IMG/VR virus record: IMGVR_UViG_2778261505_000002
Origin: a virus
Taxonomy: Duplodnaviria > Heunggongvirae > Uroviricota > Caudoviricetes
DNA: 64,000 nucleotides
Direction: 5' to 3' (one strand)
Below are positions 12,761 to 61,748 of the stretch, piece by piece. A program made the position numbers and the translations under genes. The notes beneath the pieces are model-generated. The model was not told the origin of the DNA and did no database searches. It was given only the letters and a program-made list of their open reading frames with translations. How positions within the stretch are numbered: position 1 is the stretch's first letter; each line of letters begins with the position of its first letter.

Positions 12761-13282
12761 TTATTCTTCGAACAATTTTTCGATAGATTTTGTAGGATAG
12801 AACAAAGAACGCTCGTTGTTACCAACCAGCTGGATAAAGTCTAAACTTTTATAAAACGCCTTGGCTTTGTCATTTAACGCCTCAACGAAAAGTCCATGAA
12901 TGCCTACAGCAAGAGATGCATTGTACACAACGCGCATTGCATGTGTTACAAGCATTGAGCCAAATCCTTGACCTTGAAGGGACTTGTCCAAAGCCAGCCT
13001 ACCCAAAGTAACACTTGGAACATTCCGATAAGGTACCTTCTTTTGCTGGCTTCTTGAAGGTAAGGACTCCTTTTCAAAGCAGCTACCTGACAAAGTGTAA
13101 TACCCTAACACTTTTGGTCTGCCTTCTTTCGTGCAAAGCACATAAGCGCGAAGAATTTTTCCCTCATGCTGCCTTTTTAAGTGGTTGGTTAAAAAGGCAT
13201 TTAGTGATTCTTCACCGCAATCAAAACCATTCAAATCATAATCTTTCTCTCCAGAGAAAATTTCTATCTTTATATTATCCAC
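12761..13282 (-). CDS. GNAT-family acetyltransferase toxin (TacT/AtaT/KacT-like)
   Basis: GNAT fold motifs (QGQGFGSML, acetyl-CoA binding region); 173 aa; immediately downstream of a DUF1778-type RHH antitoxin gene. Confidence 0.8.
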   Translation of the reverse strand: MDNIKIEIFSGEKDYDLNGFDCGEESLNAFLTNHLKRQHEGKILRAYVLCTKEGRPKVLGYYTLSGSCFEKESLPSRSQQKKVPYRNVPSVTLGRLALDKSLQGQGFGSMLVTHAMRVVYNASLAVGIHGLFVEALNDKAKAFYKSLDFIQLVGNNERSLFYPTKSIEKLFEE

Positions 13283-13289
13283 GAGTAAA

Positions 13290-13559
13290 CTACTCCATGC
13301 TTTTCAGACGATCAGCAGCTCGTTTCAGCTTGTCGTTCGGTGCCGGAGGATTGCTTATAGCGTCCATAACCAGATTCCAGGATTCTTCATTCAGAACTAG
13401 TCTACGGTGTTGCTCTATAACTTTCACGGCACGTTCAGATGCACTGCTAACCATAAACTGAGTAATGCTCTGGTTAGACATTGCGGCAGCTTCCTCGATG
13501 ATGCTTTTATCGTCATCGGTTAATCTCAAATCGATGCGCTGCTTTTTTAGTGCTGACAT
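13290..13559 (-). CDS. RHH antitoxin (TacA/DUF1778-like) of the GNAT toxin
   Basis: About 90 aa; start set at the ATG preceded by AGGAGG (track ORF extends to 13598); operonic with and upstream of the GNAT gene. Confidence 0.75.
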   Translation of the reverse strand: MSALKKQRIDLRLTDDDKSIIEEAAAMSNQSITQFMVSSASERAVKVIEQHRRLVLNEESWNLVMDAISNPPAPNDKLKRAADRLKSME

Positions 13560-13877
13560 GTATTCCTCCTGATGGCCGTGATGTAGGAAGGCCATCAATC
13601 TCCTCTGTTCAAACTGAGTTTTCGACTCAAAAATTACTTTAAAAGGCTATAGCCCATTACGTGTGCATTATCAAATTGTGTACGGCATATCACCGTACTT
13701 GTAATATAGAGGTCATTGTTACTTTTTTCAACAGACAAATACAAGCTATGTTTGCCAATTGTTAATCACAACCTACCATTTAACCTTTACACCGCAGCCG
13801 TAGGCATTTAGGCTATATCACATATAAGAAAACAAGTTGTTTCAGACGATAATTATATACGCAAAGGGAACTCTCCA

Positions 13878-14546
13878 ATGACCAAGATCTTTGTGGTTGG
13901 CGGCACAAAGGGCGGGCCTGGCAAATCCACCGTTGCCCAGCAAATTGCCGTTTGCCTGAAAGTCAAAAAGAAGAAGAAGGTTTATATTACCGATATAGAT
14001 ATTCAGCGCACGACAACGAGCTGGTGTGAAGACCGTCGACAGAACGAAGACCTTGAGCTGATTCCTTTTGCATACGTTCAGGATGACATCATTAAGCACC
14101 TAAAATCGCTTCAGGGTAGAGCTGAGTTTGTAGTGGTAGATGCTGGTGGCTTCGACTCCGAAATTCAGCGACAAGCGATGCTGATGGCTGACGTTATCAT
14201 TATCCCGCTGCGTCCTAAGCGTCGTGATTTGAAATCTTTACGTGACATCGATCCTATTATCGACAATGTTCGCAATGTAAACGATAAAGTGAAGGTCCGC
14301 GCGGTCATGAACCAGTGCCCGGCTTTGCCATCACAAGTGTCTCGCATTCTGGCGGCTAAAGAGATTGTTGAGACGTTTGGAATCGAGTCTGCGCCAGTCA
14401 ATCTATATAACCGCAACGTCTATGATGATGCGGAAGAGTCTGGTCGTTCTATCTTTGAAATGACCGGTAGCGAGCGCGACAAAAAGGCGGAAGCCGAGTT
14501 TGAAGAATTTGTAGATTATCTGTTGAGTCTGGAGGAAGAAGAATAA
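13878..14546 (+). CDS. parA: ParA-family partition ATPase
   Basis: Deviant Walker A (GGTKGGPGKST); 222 aa; followed by a small basic ParB/ParG-like gene whose start overlaps the parA stop. Confidence 0.85.
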   Translation: MTKIFVVGGTKGGPGKSTVAQQIAVCLKVKKKKKVYITDIDIQRTTTSWCEDRRQNEDLELIPFAYVQDDIIKHLKSLQGRAEFVVVDAGGFDSEIQRQAMLMADVIIIPLRPKRRDLKSLRDIDPIIDNVRNVNDKVKVRAVMNQCPALPSQVSRILAAKEIVETFGIESAPVNLYNRNVYDDAEESGRSIFEMTGSERDKKAEAEFEEFVDYLLSLEEEE

Positions 14547-14905
14547 TGTCCATGAAAATGGGTGACCTAGCAAAGCGCAAAGAGCCTGATGCACCGGCTA
14601 AGAACACAACTCCTTTGCGCCAACCAGTCAGACCACAGGGACGCCCGACTCGTGGCAAAGAGAAAATTAAAAGCCGCACAATGTCACTGGAGGACGAATA
14701 CTTCGAACTGCTGGAGATGATGAAGTTCATCCCTCGCTTCGAGAAGTTCACTCGTTCTGACGTGATTCGAGCAGCCATTTTCCATCTGGCAGAGAAGTCA
14801 CCGCAGGAAATCGAGGACATCGTGAAATTGAATGAGGCGATCACCGCTGCCGATGTCACGATGCGTACCGATGAAATCAAACGAGAGTTGATGAAGAAAG
14901 GTTAA
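14546..14905 (+). CDS. Small centromere-binding partition protein (ParG/ParB-like, type Ib)
   Basis: 119 aa, basic N-terminal tail, operonic with parA (overlapping start/stop). Confidence 0.6.
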   Translation: MSMKMGDLAKRKEPDAPAKNTTPLRQPVRPQGRPTRGKEKIKSRTMSLEDEYFELLEMMKFIPRFEKFTRSDVIRAAIFHLAEKSPQEIEDIVKLNEAITAADVTMRTDEIKRELMKKG

Positions 14906-43577: not shown

Positions 43578-43913
43578 ATGAAGACCATCCCATTCGCGCT
43601 GTTGTTTCTTTCTTCGATCGTTGTGGCCGACACCACTGTTTATCAGTGTGAAATGTCTGTAGCCGACGTTAAGAATGGCACTCTTACCGACGTCATAAAA
43701 GCACCATATGGAGCGATGGTCGTAGACAGCGGCGACCAGTTCTATGTTGTGCGTGACGATCGAGTGTTGTCATCCCCATATCTCACAAATCGTAATGGCA
43801 AATTAACCGGCGTCGGAGAAGACCACTTCGTATACAACAAATACAAGGGCTTCTATGGCGTTCACGCTTCTCAGCAAAGCTACCTTTTCGATGACTGCAA
43901 GGAGGTTGGGTAA
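43578..43913 (+). CDS. Hypothetical secreted protein
   Basis: N-terminal signal peptide (MKTIPFALLFLSSIVVA); 111 aa. Confidence 0.45.
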   Translation: MKTIPFALLFLSSIVVADTTVYQCEMSVADVKNGTLTDVIKAPYGAMVVDSGDQFYVVRDDRVLSSPYLTNRNGKLTGVGEDHFVYNKYKGFYGVHASQQSYLFDDCKEVG

Positions 43914-44125
43914 TGGCATTAACACTGGCAGGTCTGGAAATCGAGAAAACAAGCGGCTACTGGCGTGCTAAGGGTTTCAAGCAGCCTGGCATTCTTGAGC
44001 GTCTGGAACGTGAAGATGGGTATATCGTCCACCAGCGGCGTGAATGGCGTATGTACGATCCAGAAACAGGAAAACTGACTACAAAAGCCGGAACACTTTG
44101 GGGTCTGTTAAAGAAAATACACTAA
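43913..44125 (+). CDS. Hypothetical small protein
   Basis: 70-aa ORF whose start overlaps the upstream stop. Confidence 0.35.
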   Translation: MALTLAGLEIEKTSGYWRAKGFKQPGILERLEREDGYIVHQRREWRMYDPETGKLTTKAGTLWGLLKKIH

Positions 44126-44172
44126 ATGCAAACTGACTGCGGAACGTGCCGCAGTCATATTTCATAGTCGTC

Positions 44173-44705
44173 ACCGCTGACAGCATACACAATCAACTAC
44201 CGCTGATAGCATATCGAGAGTCTATCTCACCGCTCACAGCATACATTACTCGATTTTTTACCGCTGACAGCATACTTAAGAAATTGCATGAATAATGTGT
44301 CCCGGTATGGGTATAACCAGAACAAAATTACCGCTGGCAGCATACGAATGTCTGACATATACCATTAATTACCGCTGATAGCATATCCAAACAAAAATTC
44401 CTCAATAAAACACCGCTGACAGCATACATTCTATCAGAGAGTAGCAGGCAATAAATGCCTTTCACTACAAGCAATCAGCGCAATAGCAATAGAATGTTAG
44501 TGAGCGCAAACCTATATGGAATGCACTCTTCGAGGTTAGTAACCACTGGGGAGGTATGACAGAGCATTGAGTGGTGATAGATGATTTACCGCTCACAGCA
44601 TACGTTCATCTCACTATACCGCTGGTAGCATATCTTTAACCGTTCACAGCATACTTTTCAGAAAAATAGCCGCTGATAGCATACATTTCACCGCTGACAG
44701 CATAT
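44173..44705. repeat. Iteron array downstream of repA (incA-like), about 12 copies of a 16-bp repeat
   Basis: ACCGCTGACAGCATAC and close variants at about 44173, 44199, 44228, 44259, 44329, 44370, 44411, 44587, 44618, 44639, 44668, 44690; variable spacing; ends at the rep stop codon. Confidence 0.85.
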
Positions 44706-45799
44706 CAAAGCAGTTTGAGACTATTGGAAAGGATCTCAATCATCTTGATATTTTCAGGCGTCAAATTCTGCGAAAGTTCGGTTATCTTGTTGATAATGTT
44801 CTGTTTGGCATCAATTTCCCCAGCTTTCTCATCTGGTTTTTTGGGTTCGATGTCTTCAGGTTTTGGCGGTGCGACTTTGAGTTTTGGATTGCGGCTGTGA
44901 ATCTGGATATAGATCGACCGCCCACGCTTAATCTCGCTGTATTCGAGATAGCCCAAATCTTGGAGAGCTTTTAAGCCGTTACGTATAGTCTGATTCTGCG
45001 AGCTGACATTCCTGCTACTCAAATTGAGTCGCGCACGCAATCGAGCAAGCGATACCGGCGCAGGCTTGGTTGGAAGACTTTCGATGAAGGTGTACAGAGC
45101 CTGTGCTGTTTCTTTGCGTGGTAGCTTATTGATAACCTTTAACTGCAAAAGAACCTTATGGTCAAAGCGATATAGTTCGGCCAGCTTCGGTTCTGCATAG
45201 AACACCACCGTATCTTTCTGCTCGTTGTAGTCCACGCTATTGATGAGGTGCACCATCAGAAGCGAGATCTTGTTAGAGCCGTCGACGTTCTTTTCTTCAT
45301 ACGTTCTCTGGAAAGACAGAGTTGTACGCATGATCTTCAAAAGACTGTTTGTAAGCCGGTCGCGGAGTGTTTTGCGGATCTGTGACGATGGATAGCCACA
45401 AAACTTAGCAAATTTCGTGATACTTAACTCGACACGACCGTTAGGTTCGCCGTATTCTGCCAGCGAACGCACAACGCCCACCCACGTTTTGAAATCATGA
45501 TCCATGTCGAGACGAGGACCGGTTATCTTGATATCGGAATAGCCTTCAGAACGGGCTACTTCGAGCTGGACAAGCTCCTTTGAAGCATCGATCTCATTTG
45601 GCTTGTTACGTTTACTGTATTTTGTTCCCTTAAGCGTGGGGACGAACAACCCCAGTCGCATCAACGCAATTGGTTGGACTGTATTGTTGCTATTAGGGAC
45701 AAGTTCCCCTGTGTACAATTCAAGGGAACCTTCTTCAAAGTTGTCGATGTTATCTTCTACTTCTTTGTTATTTTTACCTTTTTTATTTTTTGTGGACAT
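44705..45799 (-). CDS. repA: Plasmid-type replication initiator (RepA-like, iteron-binding)
   Basis: Flanked on both sides by arrays of the same 16-bp iteron; start set at ATG after AAAGG RBS (track ORF extends to 45919 across the upstream iterons); basic protein of RepA-like size. Confidence 0.7.
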   Translation of the reverse strand: MSTKNKKGKNNKEVEDNIDNFEEGSLELYTGELVPNSNNTVQPIALMRLGLFVPTLKGTKYSKRNKPNEIDASKELVQLEVARSEGYSDIKITGPRLDMDHDFKTWVGVVRSLAEYGEPNGRVELSITKFAKFCGYPSSQIRKTLRDRLTNSLLKIMRTTLSFQRTYEEKNVDGSNKISLLMVHLINSVDYNEQKDTVVFYAEPKLAELYRFDHKVLLQLKVINKLPRKETAQALYTFIESLPTKPAPVSLARLRARLNLSSRNVSSQNQTIRNGLKALQDLGYLEYSEIKRGRSIYIQIHSRNPKLKVAPPKPEDIEPKKPDEKAGEIDAKQNIINKITELSQNLTPENIKMIEILSNSLKLL

Positions 45800-45819
45800 G
45801 TGGACACCTTTGTCATTCA

Positions 45820-45921
45820 ACCGCTGACAGCATACTTGATTTGCCGCTGACAGAATACCAAAAACAGTTGGCAGCATACGGTGAACCGCTGACAGACTAT
45901 CAATTACCGCTGACAGCATAC
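45820..45921. repeat. Iteron array upstream of repA (incC/origin-like), 5 copies at ~21-23 bp spacing
   Basis: ACCGCTGACAGCATAC-type repeats at 45820, 45843, ~45864, 45885, 45906, overlapping the presumed rep promoter. Confidence 0.85.
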
Positions 45922-45959
45922 ATGAACATGACTTCAGACCAGTCGTGGCGCGGCTTACA

Positions 45960-46040
45960 GCGATCGGGGATCTTATTTGATCTATATAAGGATCTATCTA
46001 TGGATCTCTTTATTAGGATCTATCCTGTGGATATGTGAAT
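45960..46040. promoter_or_regulatory. Candidate replication origin core: GATC cluster in AT-rich DNA plus DnaA-box-like site
   Basis: Six GATC sites within ~60 bp (45962-46020) and TGTGGATAT (46026-46034, 8/9 match to the DnaA box complement) immediately beyond the upstream iterons. Confidence 0.65.
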
Positions 46041-46120
46041 AATTAAAACAGGCATTTACTACCTTCGGCGCACCTGGTGGGTTATCGTTGCCTCGGCTAA
46101 CAATCACAGAAAAATGACAT

Positions 46121-46765
46121 ATGGATCTAAAACGCACGCGCTGGGTTCGTCGTCTTGAAGACGGCTCCTACACTATCGAATCAAATTCCAACCTGAATAA
46201 GCAGAAGTTGCTTTGTGACATCTGCGGTATAGCGGCGAAGTGCCCGATCTACGAAACCAGAATTAAACTTGATAAGGCTGGTGTGAATTTTCATTTAAAC
46301 AGTTGCATCAGGTACGTTCCATTACTCGCATTTCGTAAACCGATCATCGGATTGGATGCCCCCTACTTCAACACACTCCGTTCAGGTGTGACGTGGCGAG
46401 ATCGTTTATCACCAGACAAGCTGATTTGCCTCGTATCCGCAGACACAGGGAAAATCATCCGTTTTGGGAAAGTAGACAAGGTTTACTCAGGCCCAGTAGA
46501 CGAAATGTTGCGGAAACACAGCCGGTTTAATCATCTCTGTATGGGTGGTGAGAAAATCGAGAAGGTAGAAGAAGTGATCCGCAAATCCTACGGACACTTT
46601 CTGACCAAAGATAGCCTGCTCACCGCAATCTACATCAGACATGTAAAACGTGAGTTCGACCTCGAATACCACAGCGAAGAAGAGCTTAACCTTGTTGACC
46701 CACGTCCAAAAGCTGGCGTCATAAGCATAAACGCAGCGCGTAAAAAGCCCACTGACGCGCTGTAA
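46121..46765 (+). CDS. Hypothetical protein
   Basis: 214-aa ORF adjacent to the origin region. Confidence 0.45.
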   Translation: MDLKRTRWVRRLEDGSYTIESNSNLNKQKLLCDICGIAAKCPIYETRIKLDKAGVNFHLNSCIRYVPLLAFRKPIIGLDAPYFNTLRSGVTWRDRLSPDKLICLVSADTGKIIRFGKVDKVYSGPVDEMLRKHSRFNHLCMGGEKIEKVEEVIRKSYGHFLTKDSLLTAIYIRHVKREFDLEYHSEEELNLVDPRPKAGVISINAARKKPTDAL

Positions 46766-61154: not shown

Positions 61155-61748
61155 ATGATTGCAGCCGAAAAAATCAAACAGCGAAAGCGCGACAACTCTC
61201 TTCGTGACCTCTGGAGAACACCTGACTGGCTGTTTTCTGCCATTCAACGTTATCTTGGAGTGACATTTGATGTTGACGTTGCCTGCAACAAGGACAATGC
61301 AAAGCTGCCTAATTTCATAGGCGTTGAGCGTGATGCTTTGAAATCTGAATGGGGACAGCCAGGTACAATTGCCTTCCTCAATCCACCCTACTCCAAAATC
61401 TACCCCTGGATTGATGCGGCTATACGTGAGCAGGCTCGCGGAGTTACAACAGTGATGCTAATTCCTCAATCCCTAGATACAAAGTGGTATGAGCGTGCAA
61501 CAGAGTGTGCGAATGAGACGATTATTCTGTCTGGTGGCCGCGTAGCGTTTGTCGAGCCTGACGTAAATCTGGGGCAGGTAGAAGTAAACATCAACCCAGG
61601 TGGCAGTATGCTCGTTGTTTTTCGAGGATTCTGTCAGGACGCTGGGCACTCTATAAGCAAGATCCCTTTGGACGTCATGAAAAGTCTGGGAGGGTATGAT
61701 CCTGCGAATGTGATCAGGAAAAAAAGACCATCAAAGAAGGCTGCTTAG
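61155..61748 (+). CDS. DNA N6-adenine methyltransferase (phage Dam family)
   Basis: Catalytic NPPY motif (IAFLNPPYSKIYPW) and T1-Dam-like architecture; 197 aa. Confidence 0.8.
   Translation: MIAAEKIKQRKRDNSLRDLWRTPDWLFSAIQRYLGVTFDVDVACNKDNAKLPNFIGVERDALKSEWGQPGTIAFLNPPYSKIYPWIDAAIREQARGVTTVMLIPQSLDTKWYERATECANETIILSGGRVAFVEPDVNLGQVEVNINPGGSMLVVFRGFCQDAGHSISKIPLDVMKSLGGYDPANVIRKKRPSKKAA

Follow-up and report, generated by a model that had tools for sequence, protein, structure and literature searches.

An iteron-controlled replicon of the RepFIB/P1-RepA family on a phage-plasmid of the SSU5 supergroup

Architecture of the locus

The window, i.e. the whole 64,000-nucleotide stretch of DNA analysed here, contains at 44134-46042 a minus-strand gene, rep, set between two arrays of a 16-bp repeat (the iteron). 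Beyond the upstream array follow a GC-rich spacer, an AT-rich block of GATC sites and a pair of abutting DnaA boxes. The same record carries phage genes (tail, tape-measure, DnaE, NrdAB and others). The outer boundary of the replicon is formed by a GC-rich hairpin (44134-44157) with a 9-bp stem and T runs on both strands, resembling a bidirectional terminator, which sits between the gene for a 70-aa protein (43913-44125) and the first iteron. The genes next to the replicon are small ORFs without known function.

The rep gene and its predicted product

rep (44705-45799, minus strand) encodes a protein of 364 aa that is predicted, from homology, Pfam matches and its modelled fold, to be an iteron-binding initiator of the RepFIB/P1-RepA type and the Rep_3 family (WH1-WH2). 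The longest ORF here is 404 aa, and its start, the RefSeq start at 45919, lies inside the iterons. A Shine-Dalgarno sequence, AAGGTG (45805-45810, minus strand), is found 5 nt upstream of the ATG at 45799; together with the N-termini of homologues and the annotation of phage PhiR41_1, it favours the 364-aa start over the 404-aa one. The length of 365 aa given in the preliminary description is corrected accordingly.

One of the homologue searches used the 280-aa core of Rep as query. The closest initiator type is RepFIB, with 52% identity to F RepFIB RepA (WP_000361610; BLASTP, E 2e-110) and thousands of IncFIB plasmid Reps at ~50% identity, followed by P1/P7 RepA with 43.5% identity over aa 32-309 (tblastn, E 2e-64). 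Rep is thus clearly similar to both P1 RepA and the IncFIB Reps, the two families with which a comparison had initially been suggested, so that the refutation set out at the start, a Rep without kinship to iteron initiators, does not apply. It also matches PHROG 775 (E 5e-133). The WH1 domain is recognised by Pfam Rep3_N (37.5 bits against a gathering cutoff of 22.4), and the WH2 domain, Rep3_C, is matched in six of seven family members, with Rep itself below threshold (E 0.13). An NCBIfam search with Rep gave no match. PDB sequence searches with Rep and with a seven-member profile returned nothing meaningful, and hhalign comparison of that profile with F RepE was weak (probability 3%), so that it is Pfam and the predicted fold that tie Rep to solved initiators.

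The AlphaFold model of Rep has a core pLDDT of 80-93; a single-sequence model was discarded (pLDDT 40). Structural matches to the model, spanning 216-313 columns, are RctB domains 2-3 (Foldseek E 4e-8), RepE, a Rep-ssDNA complex and a pi-iteron complex. The Rep3_N match and this modelled fold place Rep among the Rep_3-type initiators, with a predicted pair of winged-helix domains. RctB of Vibrio cholerae chromosome II (5tbf, 5ubf), to which the predicted core is structurally closest, is only 12-14% identical in sequence, i.e. related at the level of the fold, and has further domains as well as regulatory sites of its own (39-mers, crtS). The RctB origin is likewise described as an iteron-type origin with DnaA boxes and Dam dependence, features that the window would share.

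Rep is 78 aa longer than P1 RepA, which has neither its extension of ~30 aa at the N-terminus nor its tail of ~55 aa at the C-terminus. Both are shared by the RepFIB Rep, including a conserved terminal helix in the tail.

Two iteron arrays flank rep

The whole window was scanned for ACCGCTGACAGCATAC, allowing up to 3 mismatches, with shuffled sequences as null. Of 18 matches, 17 lie within 44173-45921, all on the plus strand (read as GTATGCTGTCAGCGGT on the rep strand); shuffled sequences average 0.48 matches and never exceed 3. Twelve copies are downstream and five upstream of rep, in agreement with the counts first proposed.

The downstream, incA-like array consists of two groups whose facing iterons are 176 bp apart, start to start. 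The distal group (44173-44427, minus strand in the rep-strand reading) has seven copies with spacings of 26, 30, 31, 70, 41 and 41 bp, oriented like the origin iterons; its copy number is variable among relatives. The proximal group (44588-44705, minus strand) has five copies with spacings of 30, 21, 30 and 21 bp, and its last iteron shares 1 nt with the rep stop codon. All 12 downstream iterons are direct repeats. The array is divided by a 160-bp non-iteron insert (44428-44587), which is not conserved in a Klebsiella relative that has iterons in its place. An Rfam search of 43800-46300 detected no RNA family, so the insert matches no known RNA, and relics of SSU5-type or P1-type iterons were not found in it within 4 mismatches. 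Among relatives, the number of downstream iterons ranges from 8 to 13 (8 in Klebsiella pJN2-26, 9 in PhiR41_1, 12 in the window and 13 in p4_0.2).

The five upstream, incC-like iterons (45820-45921, minus strand) occupy most of the space between rep and the origin core. Their spacings of 23, 21, 21 and 21 bp bear out the early description of a period of about two helical turns. Two of the five carry 3 mismatches.

The rep promoter must lie in the 321-bp divergent intergenic region that holds these origin iterons. A consensus sigma-70 scan of the rep strand found no promoter there; a relaxed scan returned weak candidates only, overlapping the iterons, and no promoter was assigned.

The origin core

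Next to the origin iterons is a GC-rich spacer (45922-45961, minus strand; 55% GC) containing GCCGCGCCACGACTGG, a sequence that is near-identical at the same place in P1 oriR. It is followed by an AT-rich block (45962-46020) with GATC sites at 45962, 45969, 45979, 45991, 46003 and 46017, i.e. six in 59 bp, five of them inside (A/T)AGATCC-type repeats. The block has 34% GC against 46% for the window, as the preliminary description had noted in outline. No other stretch of the 64 kb has four or more GATC within 60 bp, and only 2 of 2000 random placements reached six sites. By position, the block is homologous to the five Dam sites of P1 oriR, and it is presumed to be both the unwinding element and the element controlled by Dam and SeqA. 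Folded as single-stranded DNA, the block yielded no stable structure (z = -0.28).

Two DnaA boxes with one mismatch each, ATATCCACA and TTATTCACA in the rep-strand reading, adjoin one another at 46026-46042 (minus strand), on the outer side of the origin. The first (TGTGGATAT, 46026-46034) is the near-consensus box reported initially, to which the second (46034-46042) is now added. The window contains 13 one-mismatch boxes where 15 are expected, a chance frequency. As single boxes of this kind are not enriched, the case for these two lies in their tandem arrangement and in their position, which matches the 18-bp DnaA site annotated in P1. In a related plasmid, both of the tandem boxes are perfect (TTATCCACA). 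Two-mismatch boxes over the rep start (45791-45807) were discounted, such matches occurring 3.6 times per kb.

The origin core, including GCCGCGCCACGnCTGG, aligns at the nucleotide level with the annotated P1 oriR, and also with the Klebsiella, SSU5, F RepFIB, IncFIB(K) and Moellerella replicons. The host-factor sites are conserved, while the iteron sequence changes with the Rep lineage, which is what is expected if the iterons are Rep-specific sites.

Comparison with known replicons

The P1 map, taken from the AF234172 annotation, is the same as that of the window: five origin iterons ~21 bp apart, a ~40-bp spacer, a GATC block and the 18-bp DnaA site. The likeness extends to details. The GC-rich spacers are nearly identical in sequence, the first four GATC sites are spaced at 0, 7, 17 and 28-29 bp in both, and iteron 9 of P1 incA overlaps the repA stop by 1 nt, as does the last downstream iteron here. 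Both elements are plasmid prophages with tandem DnaA boxes at the outer origin edge. The five annotated incC iterons of P1 are spaced 21-22 bp apart (21-23 bp in the window) and are as degenerate as those described here; our P1 iteron scan recovered 8 of the 9 annotated incA copies and 4 of the 5 annotated incC copies.

There are, however, several differences. The 16-bp iteron GTATGCTGTCAGCGGT stands against a 19-bp iteron in P1 (GATGTGTGCTGGAGGGAAA), and there are six GATC sites rather than five. The downstream array has 12 direct copies split by the 160-bp insert, whereas P1 has nine (3 direct, 6 inverted), and the geometry of handcuffing may therefore differ. The P1 layout that had been proposed thus stands for the map and the origin core but not for the orientation of the downstream iterons. 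In P1, a type Ia parABS system lies directly downstream of incA, whereas here a small ParA-like ATPase gene, the only one in the window (222 aa, 13878-14546), is ~30 kb away from rep. With its direct downstream iterons and distant par locus, the region is P1-like as a replicon but does not reproduce the maintenance region of P1. The virion type is that of a siphovirus, unrelated to the P1 type.

Two further maintenance functions had been put forward. The ParA-like ATPase and a toxin-antitoxin pair (TacA/GNAT toxin, 12761-13598, minus strand) are indeed present, but a recognisable ParB was not identified in the window, and the par system is neither of P1 type nor adjacent to rep.

The nearest relatives are the RepFIB replicons (F, IncFIB, IncFIB(K)), ahead of P1 itself. 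In RepFIB, repA is likewise flanked by iterons, and the upstream GATC-repeat core (AGATCCCC-ATCGCTG) aligns with that of the window. The GC-rich spacer is closer to P1 than to F, and the iteron sequence is unlike that of RepFIB, so that the incompatibility specificity is probably different. RepFIB resides on a conjugative plasmid, whereas the replicon studied here is on a tailed-phage genome.

Finally, replicons of the SSU5 / pHCM2 / pKPHS1 type share the gene neighbourhood (a 645-nt gene upstream, and 213-nt and 336-nt genes downstream) as well as the origin core and the two-array design. Reps of Klebsiella pKpn type are 85-87% identical to the window Rep and have an identical iteron. SSU5 RepA itself is only 48% identical, with iteron ACCACTGTAGAGAGT, downstream iterons in mixed orientation and a duplicated origin core.

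Distribution and identity of the replicon

Of 5,426 complete E. coli genomes, 120 contain the replicon. All 185 occurrences are on plasmids and none is on a chromosome; extrachromosomal maintenance is here judged from assemblies and is thus observational. The region is 99.6-99.7% identical to that of E. coli phage-plasmids such as p09EL50 and 98.8% identical to that of phage PhiR41_1. The identity of 99.6-99.7% also holds for about 120 further plasmids, non-mobilizable and roughly 105-120 kb in size, in which this replicon is the only one typed. A Rep of 86% identity, with the same iterons and origin core, is present on a 34.7-kb non-phage plasmid.

The window is a member of the SSU5 supergroup of phage-plasmids (pSLy3 / p09EL50 / pECOH89 type), and its replicon is of the p09EL50/pECOH89 type within that supergroup. 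The RepA proteins of p09EL50 and pECOH89 have been stated to be identical, and ESBL genes such as CTX-M-15 have been reported on phage-plasmids with this replicon (PMC3999498). The proposal of an extrachromosomal prophage fits both this membership and the exclusively plasmid location. Together, these results indicate that 44134-46042 very probably belongs to the RepFIB/P1-RepA family of iteron-controlled theta replicons and serves the plasmid maintenance of an SSU5-supergroup E. coli phage-plasmid.

The replicon is real, ordinary and already catalogued, the exact sequence having been determined, annotated and typed many times before, and its function would follow from homology. What was obtained directly is the anatomy of the sequence, the relationship of Rep and the origin core to their homologues, the predicted fold and the finding that the replicon resides on plasmids only. 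Our search of the literature found no experiments on this replicon lineage, all of its functions being assigned by homology, and the published descriptions found are shallow; the IncpKPHS1 paper, for instance, mentions no more than four iterons downstream and reports no known domain in Rep (PMC6735626). The design is that of the textbook P1/RepFIB replicon, leaving the understanding of iteron replicons unchanged, and the practical value is modest. For a replicon that occurs in ~2% of complete E. coli genomes, the present analysis adds an origin map at base resolution, from the iterons through the GC spacer and the GATC block to the DnaA boxes. It also corrects database annotations in which the rep start codon is placed inside the iterons, iterons are labelled attL/attR, or RepA is called a "replication helicase".

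Proposed mechanism

From the homology to P1 oriR and RepFIB, we infer that Rep binds the iterons and represses its own gene, that handcuffing takes place and that the origin depends on DnaA and Dam. Rep monomers would bind the five origin iterons, and host DnaA the two outer boxes. Together they would open the adjoining AT-rich GATC-repeat block, where the host replisome would be loaded. Since the rep promoter has to fall in the iteron-filled intergenic region, Rep binding is proposed to repress rep as well. The 12 downstream iterons would both titrate Rep and form pairs with the origin ("handcuffing"), keeping the copy number low. The methylation status of the GATC sites, set by host Dam and SeqA and possibly by a phage Dam-family enzyme, could couple firing to the cell cycle.

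Alternative readings

The element encodes a DnaE-like Pol III alpha, a DnaB-like helicase, a ligase and RecA, as well as a Dam-family methyltransferase (61155-61748). The DnaE-like, DnaB-like and ligase genes indicate that another replication mode exists alongside the plasmid replicon, and one may ask whether the origin also, or mainly, serves lytic phage replication, being fired by the phage replisome and switched by the phage methylase. We consider this very unlikely: ordinary plasmids that are not phages also replicate by this type of replicon, and a downstream array for copy control runs counter to the needs of a lytic origin. P1 uses its homologous oriR for plasmid replication only, and its lytic replication starts from a separate origin.

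That the repeats are sites of another protein, such as a partition centromere or an operator array, with a superficial likeness to iterons, is extremely unlikely. It is true that the 119-aa protein (14546-14905) that partners the ParA-like ATPase belongs to no recognised family and that no centromere was located. But the arrays flank a RepFIB/P1 RepA homologue at family-typical positions, their sequence tracks the Rep lineage, the par locus is ~30 kb distant, and outside the arrays the window has a single chance match with 3 mismatches. Equally hard to credit is a decayed remnant in an element maintained by some other, unrecognised replicon: the degenerate origin iterons (two of five) and the failure to find a strong promoter would fit it, but Rep is intact, with 100% conservation in many records, the conservation of the origin core extends across genera, the origin iterons of P1 are just as degenerate, and MOB-suite types no second replicon in p09EL50 or p4_0.2.

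It is conceivable, though unlikely, that the origin is more than a passive plasmid module and is wired into the phage life cycle through the element's own Dam-family methylase. If so, phage methylase would control the six-GATC block and could free the origin from the timing imposed by host Dam and SeqA, or permit replication in hosts poor in GATC methylation. As a separate part of this unlikely reading, the natural all-direct arrays of 8, 9, 12 and 13 iterons would give lineage-specific copy numbers.

Map of the replicon

The replicon region (44134-46042) had been read from the sequence as a P1-like plasmid replicon inside a phage genome, and both the observation (iterons, GATC cluster and DnaA box) and its interpretation were right. 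The replicon is not new: it has been sequenced and typed before, with the annotation "RepB family plasmid replication initiator protein", its carriers form a well-described group of phage-plasmids, and its design is textbook P1/RepFIB. What is added here is a precise map of the origin together with a few corrections of annotation.

Iterons were searched for in the whole 64-kb window using ACCGCTGACAGCATAC with up to 3 mismatches, and dinucleotide-preserving shuffles served as control. Eighteen matches were found, 17 of them within 44173-45921, all on the plus strand; shuffled windows gave a mean of 0.48 and a maximum of 3. As first described (about 12 copies downstream of rep and 5 upstream, some two helical turns apart), 12 copies lie 3' of the minus-strand initiator gene rep (44705-45799), in a distal group of 7 (44173-44427) and a proximal group of 5 (44588-44705), and 5 form the upstream, or origin, array (45820-45921), with start-to-start distances of 23, 21, 21 and 21 bp. 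All 12 downstream iterons have the orientation of the origin iterons, and the copy nearest to rep runs 1 nt into the gene's stop codon. The two downstream groups are parted by 160 bp of non-repeat DNA, which has no Rfam match, contains no detectable relic iterons and is not conserved in Klebsiella. Close relatives differ in how many downstream iterons they have: the window and pSCMY1 both have 12, p4_0.2 has 13, PhiR41_1 has 9 (via an 85-bp iteron-to-iteron deletion) and Klebsiella phage pJN2-26 has 8. What does not vary is the origin part, with its five iteron positions, its GATC block and its DnaA boxes.

The pJN2-26 record (MZ779062.1) carries 20-bp "phage attachment site attR/attL" features on either side of rep (1378-1397 and 2648-2667), each of which falls on an iteron, one belonging to the origin array and the other to the downstream array. 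Almost certainly, these labels were produced by automated detection of direct repeats and do not mark real att sites.

Between the origin iterons and the GATC cluster lies a 40-bp spacer (45922-45961) of 55% GC. The cluster itself (45962-46020) bears out the reported six GATC sites in about 60 bp of AT-rich DNA (34% GC, the window as a whole having 46%). Nowhere else in the window do 4 or more GATC fall within 60 bp, and a cluster of six arose in only 2 of 2000 random placements of the 266 GATC sites. The block has no secondary structure of its own. The near-consensus DnaA box of the preliminary description (TGTGGATAT, 46026-46034) is one mismatch from consensus and is abutted by a second one-mismatch box (46034-46042). 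Because one-mismatch boxes occur in the window at chance frequency (13 seen, 15 expected), the DnaA site is credible only through its tandem form and position; the pair is supported by a related 34.7-kb non-phage plasmid, in which two perfect TTATCCACA boxes stand in tandem at the corresponding position. On the minus strand, a tandem TGTCCACA TGTCCACA motif (45791-45807) overlaps the rep start codon, each copy being a two-mismatch DnaA box, a class found at 3.6 per kb in the window. It may represent another DnaA-box site, on the side of the iterons that faces rep; the corresponding place reads GTATCCACA in Klebsiella and CTATCCACA in P1.

Homology to P1 oriR

The strongest single result is that, as judged by sequence, the window origin is homologous to P1 oriR. 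In the GenBank AF234172 annotation, used as reference map, P1 has, in order, nine incA iterons, repA, five incC iterons, a gap of about 40 bp, five Dam sites and an 18-bp DnaA site; the incA iterons end 1 nt into the repA stop codon, the same overlap as at the rep stop, and the incC iterons are spaced at 21-22 bp and contain PrepA. The proposed P1 oriR / incC-repA-incA layout is thus borne out in feature order and nearly in distance: the last origin iteron is 41 bp from the first GATC in the window and 40 bp in P1, the GATC offsets from the first site are 0, 7, 17, 29, 41 and 55 versus 0, 7, 17, 28 and 51, and the DnaA site follows the first GATC at 64 and 60 bp, respectively. The core also aligns, pairwise alignment giving near-identity in the DnaA boxes, the AGATCC repeats and the spacer GCCGCGCCACG(A/T)CTGG, and iterons that differ from each other.

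The origin core aligns as well in PhiR41_1, pJN2-26 and SSU5; with F RepFIB, IncFIB(K) and a Moellerella phage-plasmid the alignment is looser. Iteron sequence follows Rep lineage: the window shares GTATGCTGTCAGCGGT with its Klebsiella relatives (85% identical), SSU5 has ACCACTGTAGAGAGT and P1 has GATGTGTGCTGGAGGGAAA. Conserved host-factor sites beside co-varying initiator sites are the pattern that would be expected of a functional origin of the P1/RepFIB-type family.

The window differs from P1 in the following respects. Firstly, its 12 downstream iterons are all direct, whereas of the P1 copies three are direct and those of the distal block beyond them are inverted (SSU5 has both orientations). 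Secondly, the 160-bp insert splits the array. Thirdly, the number of downstream iterons varies between close relatives. Fourthly, the partition functions are not adjacent to the replicon. SSU5 (JQ965645.1) carries two tandem copies of origin core plus iteron array upstream of repA (2280-2500 and 2655-2900), and most GATC sites of the rep-proximal copy have changed to GAAC or GACC; those of the distal copy are still present, as are its DnaA-like boxes.

By analogy with the P1 and RepFIB paradigm, Rep monomers would occupy the five origin iterons and DnaA the outer boxes, and the AT-rich GATC block between them would melt and take in the host helicase. Since rep is transcribed divergently from a 214-aa protein gene (46121-46765, plus strand; PHROG 2105, no Pfam match), its promoter must lie in the shared 321-bp intergenic region, although scans of that region did not pinpoint it. 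As origin core and iterons take up most of this region, Rep bound there should repress rep. Copy number would be limited by the downstream array, through titration of Rep and pairing with the origin.

Rep is a RepFIB-like initiator

The longest reading of rep gives 404 aa from an ATG at 45919, within the iteron array. The ATG at 45799 follows a Shine-Dalgarno sequence, AAGGTG, at a distance of 5 nt and agrees with the N-termini of all homologues and with the PhiR41_1 annotation; we therefore take Rep to be 364 aa, one residue shorter than first described. RefSeq WP_001348683.1 and many plasmid records have the 404-aa form, whose extra 40 residues (45800-45919, minus strand) would be encoded by iteron repeats.

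Rep proved homologous to both families proposed for comparison, P1 RepA and IncFIB Rep. In tblastn searches of phage genomes, P1 and P7 RepA are 43.5% identical to Rep over residues 32-309 (E 2e-64), SSU5 and Cyrano RepA 47.9%, and the Rep of Klebsiella SSU5-like phage-plasmids 85-87%. A plasmid search returned at least 5,000 records, those among the matches listed being mostly IncFIB plasmids at about 50% identity, and direct comparison with RepFIB RepA of plasmid F gave 52% (E 2e-110). Thus, the nearest characterised relative is RepFIB, with P1 RepA one step further. At the N-terminus Rep is extended by about 30 aa and at the C-terminus by a tail of about 55 aa with a terminal conserved helix; RepFIB proteins share both features, and P1 RepA (286 aa) has neither.

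Pfam Rep3_N (WH1) matches Rep above the gathering score; Rep3_C (WH2) is sub-threshold in Rep, but of 7 members of the family 6 have a match to it. The published account of the Klebsiella IncpKPHS1 group (PMC6735626) gives four iterons downstream and no known domain for Rep; our iteron count extends the former and our domain result contradicts the latter. Sequence searches of the PDB, with Rep and with a profile of 7 members, gave no meaningful match. An AlphaFold model built on 57 homologues (core pLDDT 80-93) supports a two-winged-helix initiator fold: in Foldseek its core (model md87759ff0bff of Rep, 44708-45799) matches domains 2-3 of RctB, from Vibrio cholerae chromosome II, better than any other structure (E 4e-8), the other best matches being operator-bound RepE, a Rep-ssDNA complex, a WH1 domain and iteron-bound pi. 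The RctB match fits the published view that the chromosome II origin is P1/F-plasmid-like. P1 RepA, SSU5 RepA and their family, PHROG 775, are labelled "replication helicase" in PHROGs and RefSeq phage records (NC_005856 / NC_018843); they are winged-helix iteron-binding initiators, not helicases.

Other maintenance genes and distribution

Of the parA/parB and toxin-antitoxin genes claimed earlier, a ParA-like ATPase (13878-14546, plus strand; 222 aa, PHROG 164, with MipZ, AAA_31 and CbiA matches) and an adjoining TacA-like antitoxin and GNAT acetyltransferase toxin pair (12761-13598, minus strand) were found; no ParB or centromere was identified in the window. The ATPase, its 119-aa partner (together 13878-14905), which has no family match, and the TacA/GNAT pair are a maintenance cluster about 30 kb from the replicon. 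On the other side of the replicon from the 214-aa gene lies a 70-aa protein gene (43913-44125, plus strand; PHROG 804), annotated "putative Cre-associated protein" in SSU5 and pJN2-26; both flanking genes are conserved in SSU5. A Dam-family N6-adenine methyltransferase (61155-61748, plus strand; Pfam PF05869, E 3e-38) is encoded on the same element as the six-GATC origin, and P1 too encodes its own Dam-type enzyme. The least ordinary possibility, a putative phage-specific tuning of the origin by this methylase or by variable iteron number, is unlikely.

Over the 2-kb region, the window shows 99.6-99.7% identity with some 120 circular non-mobilizable E. coli/Shigella plasmids of about 105-120 kb, including p09EL50 from E. 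coli O104:H4, and 98.8% identity with Escherichia phage PhiR41_1. Around the replicon, the p09EL50 record has tape-measure, tail, DnaE-like polymerase, DnaB-like helicase, ligase and RecA genes, and also NrdAB, thymidylate synthase, tRNAs and a phage adenine methyltransferase. Within the SSU5 supergroup of phage-plasmids, these elements make up the pSLy3/p09EL50/pECOH89 branch (PMC7969092; bioRxiv 10.1101/2025.09.12.675607), and pECOH89 RepA is announced as identical to p09EL50 RepA and 48% identical to pLF82 RepA (PMC3999498). The replicon is carried by 120 of 5,426 complete E. coli genomes, and all 185 matching places are on plasmid records, none chromosomal, which together with the SSU5-supergroup relatives fits the suggestion of an extrachromosomal prophage. 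pECOH89 is the reference for the PlasmidFinder type "IncFIB(H89-PhagePlasmid)", a name that occurs in many surveillance papers. The 34.7-kb plasmid with perfect DnaA boxes, pCFSAN004177P_01 (CP012496.1, 1079-2412), is mobilizable and multi-replicon (IncFIA/IncFIC), with no phage genes noted; its Rep is 86% identical to that of the window, and it has the same iteron and a GATC cluster. Evidently, the replicon module moves between phage-plasmids and ordinary plasmids.
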